Virus record (IMG/VR): IMGVR_UViG_3300020044_004491 | Span: 1-31,965 of that record | Source of the DNA: a virus | Taxonomy: Duplodnaviria > Caudoviricetes | Direction: 5' to 3' (one strand) | DNA: 31,965 nucleotides | Shown: one piece after another, positions 3,143-24,457 of the stretch | Position numbering within the stretch: the first letter of the stretch is position 1 | Layout: every line of letters starts with the position of its first letter | Notes under the pieces: model-generated | Database searches by the model: none | Seen by the model: the letters and a program-made list of their open reading frames with translations, nothing else | What the model was told of the DNA's origin: nothing | Made by a program: the position numbers and the translations under genes

Positions 3143-3607
3143 TTGCGAGCATTCGTCTTGGCTATAGCTATATCCGTATTCGCTCTTGTAACTCCGGCTA
3201 ACGCTGGTGGCAGTTGCCCTCAATGGGAAGCTGTTATACGAAAGGCTGGCCTTCCAGTCAAAGAGTTCAGTTACATCGCTCACAGAGAGTCTAGATGCCG
3301 TATTAAGGCAATCAACGCTCGCTATGACAAAAACGGAAAGGTTATTTGGACACTCAACAAGAACGGCTCGATTGACAGAGGATTGTTTCAGATAAATTCA
3401 GTCCACAAACAAACCGTCAGAACTGTTTGTAAAGGTGATTTAGATGAGCTTTTAACTTTACCTTGTAATTTAAAAGTAGCTAAATATCTATATGACAGAT
3501 ACGGAATGACTCCATGGAAAGGACATTCGGTTATTCCTCAATCCCATACCGACGTTCCTCCCATCCAGAATGTTCGTCCTCTAGATAGTTTTGTAAGAAA
3601 TAAATAA
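3143..3607 (+). CDS. Secreted lysozyme-like / lytic transglycosylase (SLT-like)
   Basis: AAGGA RBS, TTG start, signal peptide (ANA), catalytic motif IAHRESRC, then DRGLFQIN and NLKVAKYLY..G..PW. Confidence 0.85.
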   Translation: MRAFVLAIAISVFALVTPANAGGSCPQWEAVIRKAGLPVKEFSYIAHRESRCRIKAINARYDKNGKVIWTLNKNGSIDRGLFQINSVHKQTVRTVCKGDLDELLTLPCNLKVAKYLYDRYGMTPWKGHSVIPQSHTDVPPIQNVRPLDSFVRNK

Positions 3608-3842
3608 AGTTTGCTAAAAAACCTTCAATATAATCAAACGAATCAATAACATCTTGGTCAGGGTCTTCGCTCTGTGAGTGGTACCAATGTTCAACCAAGT
3701 CCATGCACTGTTCATTGGTTAACGCAATGTTGACTATGAAGCCATTCTCATTGTCATAGATGATTCTGTCTGTTCTGTCGGCAAGGTCGTAGAGGTCATC
3801 CTCGGTGAATATCCTTTTTGCCCAACTCCACGAATCAATCAT
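3531..3842 (-). CDS. Acidic hypothetical protein (103 aa)
   Basis: Probable start MIDSWSWAK overlapping the stop of the upstream sigma-like gene; 3' end overlaps the transglycosylase convergently. Confidence 0.6.
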   Translation of the reverse strand: MIDSWSWAKRIFTEDDLYDLADRTDRIIYDNENGFIVNIALTNEQCMDLVEHWYHSQSEDPDQDVIDSFDYIEGFLANFIYFLQNYLEDEHSGWEERRYGIEE

Positions 3843-4200
3843 ACCTGAGTATCTTACTAATACGCCCATCAATGATAAGTACTTCTCCTAGATGGCGGTA
3901 GGCAATCTGTTTCAGTCTCCATGCATGTGTTGCAGATATGCCCATTCTTTGCCCTAACTCTTCATAGGTTATGCGCTCATAGTTGATGGAGTGTATTACA
4001 AATCTGTCTTGTTCCAATAGGACTTCGAGACAGTCAAGAACAATGTCTTGGACTTCACTAAATAAACATTTGTGTTTACGGGGCTCTTCAAATGGAGCCG
4101 CTTCCATTAGTGCTTGGTATTCGTTTTCTGGTTCGTAATTGGATAGCAAGTTCATGAGGTCGTCAACATCAATAGGGATTTCCCTCTTGCTGTAACTCAT
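3835..4200 (-). CDS. Sigma-70 region 4-like HTH protein
   Basis: L.EQDRFVI...YERITYEELGQRMGISATHAWRLKQIAYRHL matches the sigma region 4 pattern. Start placed at ATG 4200 (MSYSKREIP), just after the upstream peptide's stop. Confidence 0.75.
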   Translation of the reverse strand: MSYSKREIPIDVDDLMNLLSNYEPENEYQALMEAAPFEEPRKHKCLFSEVQDIVLDCLEVLLEQDRFVIHSINYERITYEELGQRMGISATHAWRLKQIAYRHLGEVLIIDGRISKILRYD

Positions 4201-4204
4201 TGAA

Positions 4205-4288
4205 CTAGAAAATTCCCAAGACATGGCCAATCACCAGAATAGCCAAACAAATAACAGAAAATTGCAATGCTCTATAAATGGAATTCAT
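4205..4288 (-). CDS. 27-aa single-TM peptide
   Basis: Strong AAGGAGG RBS; MNSIYRALQFSVICLAILVIGHVLGIF. Confidence 0.55.
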   Translation of the reverse strand: MNSIYRALQFSVICLAILVIGHVLGIF

Positions 4289-4712: not shown

Positions 4713-4869
4713 TGGGTTCTTTGAATACAAGCCAATAGTGGGCAATCAAAGCAAGAAGAGTGGCTACAAGGGCAACCTTTTGCGTAAAGCCAGACAAGGT
4801 GAAGTACATAACAACAGCACCAGACAAAGTAAAACCAAGTCCAAGTGTTGAGTCAAAGAACTTCTTCAT
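4705..4869 (-). CDS. Small two-TM membrane protein (54 aa), missed by ORF track
   Basis: TAATG overlap with upstream gene; MKKFFDSTLGLGFTLSGAVVMYFTLSGFTQKVALVATLLALIAHYWLVFKEPNE fills the gap exactly. Confidence 0.7.
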   Translation of the reverse strand: MKKFFDSTLGLGFTLSGAVVMYFTLSGFTQKVALVATLLALIAHYWLVFKEPNE

Positions 4870-5411
4870 TAGAACTTAAGACCAATGTCCTGTGCGCTCA
4901 GGTCTTTCGGTGGCCAGAACGGAGTCTTGTTGCCATCGGCACTAACAAAATGCGGACGACGATTTTCAGGAGTTGCACTATCACGGTTGTCAAACACCTT
5001 CTCTACTCCGGCCTTAGCTGCAGCACGACCAAGCCATGCTGGGATTGGGCCGTGAGTCTGGCCAGCAATCTGCACATCCTTCATCTTCTTCACAGGTGTC
5101 GCTGATGCTTTCATACCTGCTGACACTGCAGTACTTGAACGAGCGTTATCAAGTTCGGATTTGATTTCATCTTGTGACTTACGGACAGGGATGTTGCGCC
5201 CTCCGGTCAAAGGCGCATCATCCCACGGTGACCCTTCAGGCACCGCTCGTCCATAAAGTCTCCCGAGAACAACATCAAGTACACCAGAGAAAGCTTCCCC
5301 GAAGCCTTTCAGTGCATCATCAATTGTCTCGGGCTTAGTAGATACCGTTAGCTCAGCAGCAATCTTTGCACATGCTTGGATTTCTATTGAGCGTGAAACT
5401 TCGTTAGCCAT
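4869..5411 (-). CDS. Hypothetical protein, possible ssDNA-binding/recombination protein
   Basis: 180 aa, coupled TAATG starts; C-terminal VFDNR....NRRPHF.....FWPP motif. Confidence 0.6.
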   Translation of the reverse strand: MANEVSRSIEIQACAKIAAELTVSTKPETIDDALKGFGEAFSGVLDVVLGRLYGRAVPEGSPWDDAPLTGGRNIPVRKSQDEIKSELDNARSSTAVSAGMKASATPVKKMKDVQIAGQTHGPIPAWLGRAAAKAGVEKVFDNRDSATPENRRPHFVSADGNKTPFWPPKDLSAQDIGLKF

Positions 5412-5797
5412 TACTTAGCCTTCTTGGCAGGAGCTTTCTTTGCTGCCTTCTTGACTGGAGCAGCTTCAACTGCTTGTACTGCAAGCTTCAACAAAAGAGT
5501 TGTGTTCTTGTCGCCAATCTTGCTGGACACAAATGACAAGACTAAAGAAGCAACAGGAACCAATGCAGCAATAACTTCTGCTGACCAGCCCTGCTGAACG
5601 CCAACGTAAGTCAAAAGACCAACGGCGGCACCTTTCATCGTTGTATCAAGATGTGCAATCTTTTTGTTCTTTTCCATGGTTATTACCTGTTTCCTGTGTT
5701 GTTCGTATAGTTCGTCAAACCCTAGTTTATCCATGAACTCAGCTGAGCTGATGAACAATCCGGCTTTACGAATCTCCTTATTAGTAGGCCGATTCAT
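5411..5797 (-). CDS. Holin-like two-TM protein with Lys/Ala-rich tail (alternative start 5677)
   Basis: ATG 5797 overlaps the methyltransferase stop (ATGA); internal ATG 5677 has an AGGA-type RBS; two hydrophobic segments; ends KKAAKKAPAKKAK. Confidence 0.6.
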   Translation of the reverse strand: MNRPTNKEIRKAGLFISSAEFMDKLGFDELYEQHRKQVITMEKNKKIAHLDTTMKGAAVGLLTYVGVQQGWSAEVIAALVPVASLVLSFVSSKIGDKNTTLLLKLAVQAVEAAPVKKAAKKAPAKKAK

Positions 5798-8427: not shown

Positions 8428-8931
8428 ATAAATGTCGCTCCACAGGGGAACTACAGCAAGGACGAGTCATACAACTAGACAGTGTCAAGTTCTGGCAAGG
8501 GAACAAGAAAACACTAAAAATAGAGCGAAATCTAGTACTAAACGCTTGCAAAAGGAAGCAGAAAGTATACAAGTGAAATACAAGTGAGAATAAGGGCATA
8601 ACTACTGCCCGTAATTGACCGCTGAGTTAATTAATTGCTGTCATTCTTGCTGTCTTCATGCAGCTGTTGCGTGCTTGTTGGTGTGTAATAGCTGGTTATC
8701 AACCTACGAGCAAGCTATCAAGTTAGTGATGACTTGCTTACTCGACTGTTCGGTGCACGACTACCTGGGACTGCCAGCTACTACACGTGTCTAGGCTACC
8801 ACACATTGATGCATAAAGGACTAAATACATGCGTGGAAGAAGTGATGATGTACTTGCTGTGTTGTTAGCTACATGCATATAGGCATATACACATACAGTC
8901 AGTCAGTTAGCTAGGTATGCAGTACACCTGA

Positions 8932-8986
8932 CCCCAGCCACCCCATACCCACCCCCCCCGGGTACCGTCAATTTGTATATATATAA
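8932..8986. other. C-rich tract with CCCGGGTACC and TA run; candidate pac site/genome terminus
   Basis: CCCC-AGCCA-CCCC-ATA-CCC-A-C8-GGGTACC followed by GTATATATATA, at the end of a long ORF-poor segment. Confidence 0.35.
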
Positions 8987-9009: not shown

Positions 9010-9120
9010 CTAAATACTTTGTATGCTACGAGTTTCTAGTTTGTAGTGTTGATGGCAGACACATTCTTTGTTTGGGCAGTAGTAGTAGGCGTCTTCGTTG
9101 TAGTCGTGGATGTTTTCCAT
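9010..9120 (-). CDS. 36-aa Cys/His peptide
   Basis: MENIHDYNEDAYYYCPNKECVCHQHYKLETRSIQSI with GGGG-type RBS. Confidence 0.45.
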   Translation of the reverse strand: MENIHDYNEDAYYYCPNKECVCHQHYKLETRSIQSI

Positions 9121-9169
9121 TTGTTTACCCCGTACCCTTGTTTTGTTAAGTACTAGTACTTTTTTTCTA

Positions 9170-9301
9170 CTACTTTTCTTCTGTTACTTCTGTGCTACCT
9201 GTTGTGAAGGCTGCTTCATAACCTGGGTAGTCTTGTAGTTTGTCGTTCTCGTCGAGTATGTAGGCGTGGTCACCGATGATTACTAACATTGAGTTGGTCA
9301 T
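9170..9301 (-). CDS. 43-aa acidic peptide, probably leaderless
   Basis: MTNSMLVIIGDHAYILDENDKLQDYPGYEAAFTTGSTEVTEEK; TATACT at 9308-9313, 6 nt before ATG. Confidence 0.55.
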   Translation of the reverse strand: MTNSMLVIIGDHAYILDENDKLQDYPGYEAAFTTGSTEVTEEK

Positions 9302-9429
9302 ATGTGCAGTATATACGCTCTAGTTGCTAACGCGGCCTAGTGGCGGCCCGTCGGCTTCGCCTCCTCCTCGCCTAGTGCCTTTGCTTCGCTTCGCTCGCAC
9401 AGCACGTGTTTTTATTTTCCTGTTAAAAG

Positions 9430-9458
9430 AAGAGAGAGAAGTTGCCAAGAGAGAGAAG
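9430..9458. repeat. Direct repeat AAGAGAGAGAAG x2
   Basis: Exact 12-mers at 9430-9441 and 9447-9458. Confidence 0.85.
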
Positions 9459-9725
9459 AAAAAACCCCCCCGCTGAACATCAACTTAAAAAGTTGGGGGA
9501 AGTCGTCAGCTAACTTGCCTGGCTAGGTTGCGCAACAGGGCTTGAATATTTTCTTCTCTTAAAAAAGCGGCAAGGCGACCCCGTTTGACGGTCTACATCC
9601 TCGGTTATATTTCCTGGCTACCCCGACTTTGTCGGCACCAGGGTTTCCCCGATAGAGCAGGATTCCCACCTGACACCACTGTTCACGCCGTGGTGGGCGA
9701 CACTTTCGTGCTAAGTGAAGTTGTG
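9455..9725 (-). ncRNA. Putative structured non-coding RNA (~270 nt)
   Basis: Directly downstream of a copy of the phage promoter motif; no credible ORF. Hairpins GCAC-GAAA-GUGU, CACCAC/GUGGUG, CAGG-UGGGAAU-CCUG, GGG-GAAA-CCC, CCGAC-AAA-GUCGG, CCGU-CAA-ACGG, CAACUU/AAGUUG; ends in G7-U6. Confidence 0.6.
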
Positions 9726-9726
9726 T

Positions 9727-9751
9727 TCTATAGTACAGCTTGTTTCATTAC
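9727..9751 (-). promoter_or_regulatory. Phage promoter motif copy driving putative ncRNA
   Basis: Minus strand reads GTAATG-AAACAAGCTGTACTA-TAGA. Confidence 0.65.
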
Positions 9752-9785
9752 ATGCGGCGCTAGTACTTGATATACCTGTGATATA

Positions 9786-9992
9786 TCACCGCTTACTATT
9801 TGAACGCTCCTTTGCGTACGAAATCAAGCTTGAGCAATCGTTGCGGCTCATGCCTTCAGTGTATGGAATACCAAGCTTTTTCATATATGCTAACTGCTTA
9901 GGCGTTGGCGCAATAAAAGGCTTTGGTTTCTTCTGCGTGTACGTGATGTATCGGTTTGATGGAAGACTGCGCTCCCAGTTCATTCGTGTCAT
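9786..9992 (-). CDS. Small basic hypothetical protein (68 aa)
   Basis: AAGGAG RBS; PTPKQLAYMKKLG...SRNDCSSLIS small helical motif. Confidence 0.75.
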   Translation of the reverse strand: MTRMNWERSLPSNRYITYTQKKPKPFIAPTPKQLAYMKKLGIPYTEGMSRNDCSSLISYAKERSNSKR

Positions 9993-10626: not shown

Positions 10627-10665
10627 ACCTGTTAGCATACACCATGTTGACGGTTTGTAGTGTAT

Positions 10666-20310: not shown

Positions 20311-20315
20311 ACTAG

Positions 20316-22579: not shown

Positions 22580-24457
22580 ATGGCTCGTCAATCAAATGCA
22601 GACAGACTCGCAAGTTACAGAAAGCGTGTTGATTACGCACGTAACTGGCGTAAGAATGAAAACTACGACAATCTCTGGCAACGGATGATTAACCTTTACC
22701 GTGGTCGTCAGTACCGTGGTCAGGCAGTAGGCGACAGGCTTCTTGTTAACATTGCTTTCTCCACGATTAACACTCTTGCTCCATCAGTTGCTATCGGTAG
22801 ACCAAAAATCAATGTGAATCCACGCCGTCCTGAAGATGGCGACAAAGCTGTTGTTACTGAATCAATTATTAACTATTGGTGGCAACATTACGAATGCCAG
22901 CCACAATTCCAACTTGCCGTTAAGGACTATTTGATTCTTGGTCATGGTTGGGTAAAGACTGGCTATCGTTTTGTTGAAGAAGCAAAGACCAAGGACATTC
23001 AGGACAGCGCAGACGAAGCCGCAGACCCAAACAAGCCAGCAGACGATGTTGAGTCAGAATTCATCATTAGAGAAGACCGCCCATTCCTAGAGCGTGTTGA
23101 CCCGTTTGACATGTTCGTTGACCCGGATGCAACATCAATGGATAATGCACGTTGGATTGCTCAGAGAACTCGTCGTCCAATCAAGGACATTAAGAATGAC
23201 CCAAGATATGACTTCTCTGCCCGTAAGGATGTAGGCCCATCGTCATACCAGCGTTATGGCGACATCAATACAACTCCAAACTTCTACACCACGAACTCAT
23301 ACGGTGAAGAAGATGCCTATGCAGACATCTTTGAGTACTACGACATTGACACAGGTGAAATGTCCGTCTTCTCTGACTCTGGAGACAAGTTCCTTATCAA
23401 GCCAGTCAAGATGCCATATGTGTTTGGTCATCCATTCTTCATGTTGCGCAACTACGACATTCCTGGTTTCTTCTACCCAATGGGTGAACTAGAAGCCATT
23501 GAGCCATTGCAGTACGAATTAAACGAAACTCGTACGCAGATGATGAACCACAGAAAGCGTTACTCACGTAAGTGGTTGGCCCTTGAGTCTGCCTTTGACG
23601 ACTTCGGTCGCCAGATGCTTGCTTCAGATGACGACAACGTAATCGTGCCTGTTAAGGGCTCCGAGAACCTGAACAATGTTGTTGTTCCAATGCCAGCACT
23701 CATCAACCCACCAGAGTTCTACAACCAGTCAGCTTTGATTCAGAACGACATTGACCGTGTGTCAGGTGTCTCTGAGTACCAGCGTGGAGCAATTCCTGAG
23801 ACCACGAGAACAGCCCGTGAAGCATCAATCATTGCTGAAGCCGGAAACGCTCGTGTTGCTGAAAAGCTTGTCAACATAGAGAATGCCATTGCCCGATGCG
23901 CGGCGAACCTCATCATGCTTGCCCAGCAGTACTTGACTGGCGAACAGACGGTTCGTATCGTTGGCACAGAGGCAGCCCCAGTTTGGTTGACCTTTGACCG
24001 TGACTACATTGCTGGAGAATTTGACTACAGCGTAGAAGCTGGCTCAACTGCTCCACGAAACGAAGCTTTCCGTCGAGACATGGCTTTGCAGGTTGTTTCA
24101 GCAATGGCACCGTTTGCTCAAGCTGGTCTTGTCAACATGGCAAAACTGGCCGAATATGTGCTTGGAACTGGATTCGGTATCAAGAATGCTTCAGCGTTCC
24201 TGACTCAACCACAGGCACCAGAAGGAATGAGTCCAGACCAGCAAGTTCTTGAAGGACAAGGGCTTCCACCTGGAATGACCCCTGACCAAATGGCTCTTGG
24301 ACAAGAACCACAACTCCCACCAGGGATGATTCCTGGAGCACCACTCCAAGGTCCTGGCGGAGAAGTAGGCGCGCCACCGATGGGCGCATTGGAAAGCTTG
24401 CCGCCTGAATTGCTACAGATTCTGTTAGCACAGGCGCAACAAGCTCCACCTATGTAA
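22580..24457 (+). CDS. Portal protein (P22-like)
   Basis: 625 aa between terL and scaffold; G.GWVK.GY, RVDPFDMFVDPDA, VSGV....RG......TAREASI; Q/P/G/M-rich tail. Confidence 0.9.
   Translation: MARQSNADRLASYRKRVDYARNWRKNENYDNLWQRMINLYRGRQYRGQAVGDRLLVNIAFSTINTLAPSVAIGRPKINVNPRRPEDGDKAVVTESIINYWWQHYECQPQFQLAVKDYLILGHGWVKTGYRFVEEAKTKDIQDSADEAADPNKPADDVESEFIIREDRPFLERVDPFDMFVDPDATSMDNARWIAQRTRRPIKDIKNDPRYDFSARKDVGPSSYQRYGDINTTPNFYTTNSYGEEDAYADIFEYYDIDTGEMSVFSDSGDKFLIKPVKMPYVFGHPFFMLRNYDIPGFFYPMGELEAIEPLQYELNETRTQMMNHRKRYSRKWLALESAFDDFGRQMLASDDDNVIVPVKGSENLNNVVVPMPALINPPEFYNQSALIQNDIDRVSGVSEYQRGAIPETTRTAREASIIAEAGNARVAEKLVNIENAIARCAANLIMLAQQYLTGEQTVRIVGTEAAPVWLTFDRDYIAGEFDYSVEAGSTAPRNEAFRRDMALQVVSAMAPFAQAGLVNMAKLAEYVLGTGFGIKNASAFLTQPQAPEGMSPDQQVLEGQGLPPGMTPDQMALGQEPQLPPGMIPGAPLQGPGGEVGAPPMGALESLPPELLQILLAQAQQAPPM

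Follow-up and report, generated by a model that had tools for sequence, protein, structure and literature searches.

A real, conserved and new phage RNA module lies upstream of the small terminase gene (terS) of a small tailed phage; its RNA gene, about 260 nt long and pseudoknotted, is encoded on the minus strand behind a promoter motif common to terS and the scaffold gene. As judged from the sequence, the region has about an even chance of being an RNA-primed (R-loop) replication origin module that is run by host enzymes. It can also be proposed, rather more tentatively, that a clade of small tailed actinophages has no protein initiator and draws on a family of primer RNAs, modular and recombining, with four or more folds that each end in a G-run. 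A phage sigma-like factor would switch these RNAs on, and they would be swapped with a module of inverted repeats plus an OB-like gene and with RNAs that precede the initiator-like and helicase-loader genes of a 169-kb phage. For the start of DNA synthesis in small tailed phages without replication genes, the module provides a short, clonable candidate origin with natural swap partners; whatever its role, the RNA family is new to Rfam.

The window, i.e., the whole stretch of DNA that was analysed (31,965 nt), is the source record of a P22-like podovirus and contains about 32 of the approximately 38 kb of its genome. The sequencing runs that best match the phage are from lake water, and the gene of WhiB found in three relatives points to an actinobacterium as the likely host. 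The main features are as follows:

Plus strand, from 10719: terS, with terL, portal, scaffold and capsid also on the plus strand
Minus strand: glycosyltransferase, methyltransferase, RusA, HNH and sigma region-4 protein, from the PHROGs/Pfam scan of ORFs
3835-4230, minus strand: sigma70 region-4 protein (PF04545, E 9.6e-05, below cut-off)
9786-9992, minus strand: small gene of 68 aa directly upstream of the RNA (phrog_20233, E 0.018, a family without an assigned function)
9728-9752, minus strand: predicted phage late-class promoter, with two conserved boxes 15 nt apart and a putative function
9575-9724, minus strand: variable 5′ domain of the RNA, a hairpin plus multi-way junction, with interchangeable types among homologues
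9549-9559, minus strand: purine tract within the RNA, the complement of the pyrimidine tract that follows the G-run
9465-9545, minus strand: conserved 3′ domain, a short stem and then a pseudoknot-like helix pair around the inner hairpin 9495-9481
9478-9472, 9471-9465 and 9464-9459, minus strand: heptamer, G7 and U6, as read from the sequence
9424-9464, minus strand: U6 plus pyrimidine tract, which may serve as an unwinding element or form the 3′ tail of the RNA
9336-9404, minus strand: DNA mini-hairpin cassette with C-GNA-G triloops around a conserved CTAG, a candidate lagging-strand initiation signal
9400-9383 and 9361-9353, minus strand: cassette motifs, with CACTAGG at 9377-9371 and 9342-9336

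First of all, the gene inventory agrees with the initial annotation, which had seen no replication genes in this phage: none of the 49 window ORFs matched a polymerase, primase, helicase, Rep or integrase in PHROGs or Pfam. The part of the genome that is absent from the window was judged from G001 (38,004 nt), the closest relative that is complete, whose ORFs in this part also gave no replication family. The replication-gene scans of five complete relatives (G001, G003, G004, G008 and G009) were partial, and only selected non-structural ORFs were scanned in G003, G004, G008 and G009, which are terminally repeated genomes. No replication family was found among 53 selected ORFs of G001, G003 and G004 or among 23 selected ORFs of G008 and G009; family searches for DnaB_C in G001, G003 and G004 and for Pol A in G001, G003, G008 and G009 gave no match. 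Two conserved small proteins (window 4869-5411 and 3531-3872) have apparent counterparts in the complete relatives, and either of them could be an unrecognised initiator or hide a replication function; searches with the conserved protein of 180 aa gave no family assignment. In addition, small genes related to the one at 9786-9992 are the usual neighbours of the RNA (clusters C2 and C11), and its protein and the homologues in L042, L127, L269 and L274 have an arginine-rich N-terminal segment, which we take to be a possible RNA-binding arm. As for the GC-skew switch suggested earlier, the strand-skew profile of the window follows gene direction (four-fold-site skews were also computed, for 8 genomes).

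The promoter element (9752-9728) repeats, in inverted orientation, the one preceding terS (inverted repeat I1). The motif has 7 matches in the whole window, and because it is found again at 10665 before terS, at 20315 behind terL and at 24453 ahead of the scaffold gene, the RNA promoter likely belongs to the late class. Its candidate reader would be the sigma70 region-4 protein, whose homologues in G003, G004 and G008 also have sigma-factor matches. A late-class promoter is an odd choice for a first origin, and this was counted against the origin reading. Short direct and inverted repeats resembling operators were observed just upstream of the RNA promoter in L003 (~5640-5700), L041, L081, L272, L273 and L277 and are absent from the window.

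Homologues of the RNA were gathered from the neighbourhoods of terS and by pattern scans, and the metagenome matches have the expected layout in 14/14 cases and the same phage neighbours in 13/14. A profile scan then gave 23 distinct homologue sequences, which were aligned for covariation. In the 29 proposed pairs, 84.5% of the cells are paired and 11 pairs have changes on both sides, a level reached by 0/500 shuffles and compared with 39–57% pairing in slid controls; since the structure was drawn from the same, related 23 sequences, these values are strong support, not a probability. The single-sequence fold of the RNA is not above shuffles (z 0.26), that is to say, the structure is visible through covariation only. 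In the 3′ domain, the helix 9510-9506 : 9476-9472 has both-side changes in 4/5 pairs (82.6% paired), the helix between the C-run and the G-run (pyrimidine heptamer 9502-9496 : G7 9471-9465) is 90.7% paired, and the inner hairpin 9495-9481 is 92.8% paired. The two crossing helices of this domain may be alternatives, because their linker of 3 nt is short for both together. The 5′ domain has both-side changes in 8/24 predicted pairs (8 sequences), and close relatives combine different 5′ and 3′ RNA types. The purine and pyrimidine tracts (I10) are fully complementary over 11 nt, and their best helix was matched by at most 10 of 200 shuffles in 14/23 homologues, in a test where low-complexity tracts pair easily and some of the best helices drew on neighbouring bases.

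The metatranscriptomes give a weak hint of transcription of the RNA: in 5/6 runs the sole contig falls within 9507-9707, inside the RNA, and in the sixth run the contig covers the start of terS, while the DNA runs cover all bins; these RNA contigs are unstranded, with a depth of about 3 and runs possibly of one campaign, so that uncovered bins are uninformative. Evidence for the ends of the molecule was not obtained from the contigs. With regard to novelty, the Rfam covariance models gave 0 matches at gathering for the RNA and one weak match to U6atac (E 7.3), the Rfam 15 scan of the related loci gave tRNAs only, and annotated phages and plasmids (the latter searched to E 1) had no match. Resemblances to group II intron D5/D6, an HDV-like ribozyme and an FMN riboswitch were considered and dropped since they had no Rfam match. 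Short-pattern scans were prone to chance (5/11 loci in one scan, and 3/3 matches in cellular genomes). A further scan of this kind yielded two loci that were set aside, one already known and the other reaching only E 0.17. The 113 loci of the GCGAAGCGAGCGGGG scan stand mostly in unrelated contexts, and the RNA model had no match on the 28 of them to which it was applied. No description of the RNA or of the replication of the clade was found in the literature within reach, which leaves out most subscription papers and supplements.

Next to the RNA body, the heptamer, G7, U6, the pyrimidine tract (to ~9424), both cassette motifs and the twin CACTAGG all lie at the minus-strand positions given by the initial annotation. 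Runs of at least 7 G occur only twice in the window, namely this G7 and one at ~8959. The G-run has 6–7 G in 18/23 close homologues, a figure inflated by the 14 loci that were found by a G5 pattern, and 3–5 G in the other 5/23; in the diverged group it has 3–5 G in 9/9 distinct rows, and the partner strand changes along with it. The length of G7 is accounted for, because it pairs with the pyrimidine heptamer 9502-9496. Both the broken G-runs and this explanation by RNA pairing were counted against the origin reading. In mitochondrial CSB II, a G-run is followed by a U-tract. The window has the same succession, from which a CSB II-like primer site had been suggested; however, at least 5 U follow the G-run in only 4/23 homologues, and the G-run forms one side, the 3′ one, of a helix in the RNA, with a partner that covaries, so the suggestion does not hold. 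The pyrimidine tract is present in most close homologues and replaced by an AT-rich stretch in the diverged ones. Separately, the other long G-run (~8959) belongs to a minus-strand G-rich tract at window 8925-8970. Relatives with either type of module also carry this tract upstream of terS, and several contigs stop close to it; it is a candidate packaging site or genome-end signal.

The cassette downstream is characterised by strand-specific hairpins. Both copies of GCGAAGC on the minus strand of the window are in the cassette region, and in the 21 related loci, C-GNA-G triloop hairpins (in 13/21) number 22 on the RNA-like strand versus 0 on the opposite strand and 3.8 expected from shuffles. 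CTAG is located among predicted hairpins, 88–157 nt downstream of the G-run, in 16/21 homologues with enough sequence. According to PMC13037366, the GCGAAAGC mini-hairpin has a far lower stability in its RNA form than in its DNA form, and GNA-loop mini-hairpins are found at the G4/ssiA priming sites. In the ColE1-type scheme, as PMC5043065 and PMC3167613 present it, the R-loop displaces the RNA-like strand. Since the mini-hairpins are on this very strand, they were counted for the origin. The GCGAAGC motif had been taken for a PriA site; its downstream position and strand specificity stand, but it is better read as a DNA mini-hairpin and is missing in several homologues.

The distribution of the cassette is uneven. 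The RNA occurs without it in 5/21 homologues (L271, L026, L270, L128 and L008), and the cassette profile has no match in the diverged RNA group. The profile matches the complete genome G008 (E 0.004), which was not among the seeds, and its matches are confined to loci with an RNA upstream, G008 included. The exact 16-nt hairpin motif is present in 11/300 loci, all of the G001 type, L081/L276 or L127. Related hairpins also exist in intergenic stretches of unrelated phages, and similar ones were found in 2/2 near-complete Pol A-encoding phages tested, which was counted against the origin reading. So were the complete G003 and G004, which have neither RNA nor cassette. Because of these two genomes, the RNA module is not the clade's only solution.

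What replaces the RNA can be seen at the terS-linked slot. Among 46 roughly non-redundant terS loci chosen from 125, the 40 with at least 1 kb upstream were counted: 18 have the RNA alone, 16 an OB-like gene alone, 0 both and 6 neither. In three of the six, a promoter-like motif is followed by a different G-ended stretch that seems to be folded (as judged by eye and from single folds), one is G008, and two have nothing in 1.5–2.1 kb. The slot is occupied by an RNA or OB module in 38/40 loci. That the RNA and the OB-like gene never occur together was counted for the origin; such exclusion can also result from a single slot with room for one cassette, without a common function. On the terS tree, the RNA label requires five changes or more, and two terS proteins of identical sequence stand beside different modules. 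The small gene that replaces the RNA encodes an OB fold according to its structure model (pLDDT 82.5; best matches Teb1 OB-B, tRNA-synthetase anticodon domains and SSB), with a weak PF01336 match in 8/14 members of the family, and the protein may on that account bind DNA or RNA; sequence searches of solved structures with the family gave nothing useful. It is mostly located behind long inverted repeats.

Several side observations belong to these slots. In the OB loci L009, L011, L095, L104, L121, L124, L137, L141 and L149, the inverted repeats are long and imperfect and lie 100–300 nt upstream of the OB gene; a sigma70-type promoter precedes them, and they are built around an AT-rich centre from short units that differ between lineages. 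They are a possible alternative origin. Further G-ended RNA-like folds are located upstream of terS in L017/L020 (~280–480 nt) and L043/L045/L148 (~300–560 nt) and in equivalent slots of L282 (9585-9822) and L297 (10195-9922); for three such folds the sequences are too few for covariation. Another small RNA, about 150 nt in length, starts from a sigma70-type promoter, ends in an intrinsic terminator and is conserved in many relatives (minus strand; L015 ~2600-2750, L021 ~150-320, L029 ~9080-9250, L095, L104, L148-L151); it is absent from the window, and the loci scanned for it gave no match to Rfam.

The RNA is also found beside replication genes. In L271, it follows a sigma70-like promoter and precedes two genes, one similar to those of replication initiation proteins at E 5.6e-06 and the other to a helicase loader at E 3.4e-05; L282-L284 have a promoter and flank near-identical or similar to those of L271, enclosing a different RNA that is also G-run-ended. 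The genome that holds L282 (G006, the 169-kb phage) has its own Toprim-AAA primase-helicase, and the sister RNA there precedes the loader, which was counted against the origin reading; no polymerase match was found among its 104 long ORFs. A short initiator-like ORF and a helicase loader were noticed at 9944-10809 of L282. In G008, where the module is inverted, a late-class promoter is followed by an RNA with an L041/L272-like 5′ part and an L282-type 3′ domain, and then by G6, a pyrimidine tract and a window-type hairpin cassette, so that the G-run, the tract and the cassette are retained even where the preceding 3′ fold is unrelated. The order of promoter, folded RNA, G-run, tract and cassette that the initial annotation had pointed out is therefore found again in relatives, also in inverted orientation and with another 3′ domain in the RNA. 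Its idea of an origin gains from the RNA homologue placed directly before initiator-like and helicase-loader genes, but the G-run and cassette are not universal.

If the module is an origin, the following course can be envisaged. With the phage sigma-like protein available, transcription from the late promoter would yield the RNA, whose G-rich end would stay hybridised to the template. The RNA fold would decide whether the hybrid persists, in that the C-run and purine tract would pair either with the 3′ part of the RNA or with the displaced DNA strand, two kinds of pairing that covariation cannot separate. Host RNase H and Pol I would then extend the hybrid, and the displaced strand would expose the mini-hairpins, where host primase or a PriA-type primosome would start the lagging strand.

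Other explanations account for parts of the same evidence. The RNA may be expressed late and act freely as a regulator or decoy, for instance by binding a host factor or the small protein encoded upstream, with the cassette as an independent neighbour. This is unlikely, with the following in its favour: the fold is complex, the G-run helix followed by U6 resembles a terminator in the window, the RNA contigs are confined to the RNA body, the promoter is of the late class and five homologues, L271 among them, lack the cassette. On the other hand, termination at the G-run cannot be general because U6 is not conserved, the cassette profile matches only loci with an RNA upstream, including G008 with its other 3′ domain, and the RNA stands before initiator-like and loader genes. 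Improbable, but in keeping with a module that is always within ~2 kb of terS in the clade and uses the promoter class of terS, is a role in DNA packaging or genome-end processing, in which late transcription would open the DNA beside terS and the hairpins would mark a nicking or terminase-loading site. Similar intergenic hairpins in unrelated phages, some of them polymerase-encoding, would suit this role as well; against it speak L271 and L282-L284, whose RNAs precede replication genes instead of packaging genes, the inversion of the module in G008, and the G-rich tract 8930-8965, which recurs in both module types and is a better packaging-site candidate.

That neighbouring HNH endonucleases spread the RNA as a selfish or hitch-hiking element, without an essential role in the phage, is very improbable. 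HNH genes (cluster C0) do flank the slot in many loci, and the repeated module changes on the terS tree would fit such spreading; however, OB-type loci are HNH-flanked too, several RNA loci have no HNH gene in the stretch examined, and the slot is filled by an RNA or OB module in nearly all loci. There is scarcely any likelihood that the whole folded stretch acts as single-stranded DNA rather than RNA. Covariation cannot distinguish the two, as stated in PMC5737381, and the downstream hairpins are of the DNA type; a conserved promoter in front, RNA contigs over the stretch and the frequency of G-U pairs in the helices speak against it.

ColE1 and the MRB plasmids, whose hosts are Gram-negative, are described cases of RNA-primed replication by host enzymes. 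If the origin role is true, replication by RNA priming with host enzymes extends to tailed phages of freshwater Actinobacteria, a phage transcription switch replaces antisense control, and other orphan phage RNAs with mini-hairpins behind them acquire a testable function.

Compared with RNA II of ColE1/pMB1, as PMC5043065 and PMC3167613 describe it, the likeness lies in the lack of any recognised initiator gene, in a folded non-coding RNA that would point at the origin and in a candidate single-strand initiation signal downstream. The phage module differs in its RNA of about 260 nt versus 550 for RNA II, in having no match to plasmid sequences at E 1 or to Rfam (RNA II/RNA I), and in its late-class promoter, likely actinobacterial host and several interchangeable RNA folds. 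For an antisense (RNA I-like) transcript, a scan confined to sigma70-type promoters found none on the plus strand between 8400 and 10800. Compared with the ColE1 pas, the phage hairpins are on the expected strand, but they are variable and absent in 5/21 homologues. The G4/St-1/alpha3 and ssiA sites with d(GCGNAGC) mini-hairpins (PMC13037366) likewise have GNA-loop hairpins that are strand-specific (one strand only, 22 vs 0 here), whereas the phage hairpins vary around CTAG and are also present in polymerase-encoding phages; at G4-type signals, primase begins its primer beside the hairpins at a fixed trinucleotide, and here the conserved CTAG (16/21) is only a candidate for such a start site.

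The MRB (marine RNA-based) replicons and ARRPOF, PAGEV and GEBRO are, according to PMC3035462 and PMC5737381, structured RNAs of a few hundred bases in Rep-independent replication regions, which the phage RNA resembles; it differs in having no Rfam or plasmid match and in occurring in phage-like contexts only. As for T4, PMC3016281 describes origins that also start from phage-activated promoters, and the predicted reading of the module's promoter by a phage-coded factor, its candidate unwinding element downstream and its would-be primer RNA have counterparts at oriF/oriG. In contrast, T4 needs no specific downstream sequence and uses its own replisome, whereas here the RNA fold covaries and no phage replisome was recognised. 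In summary, by analogy it is plausible, though unproven, that the module works like ColE1, the MRB replicons and T4 oriF while belonging to none of them.
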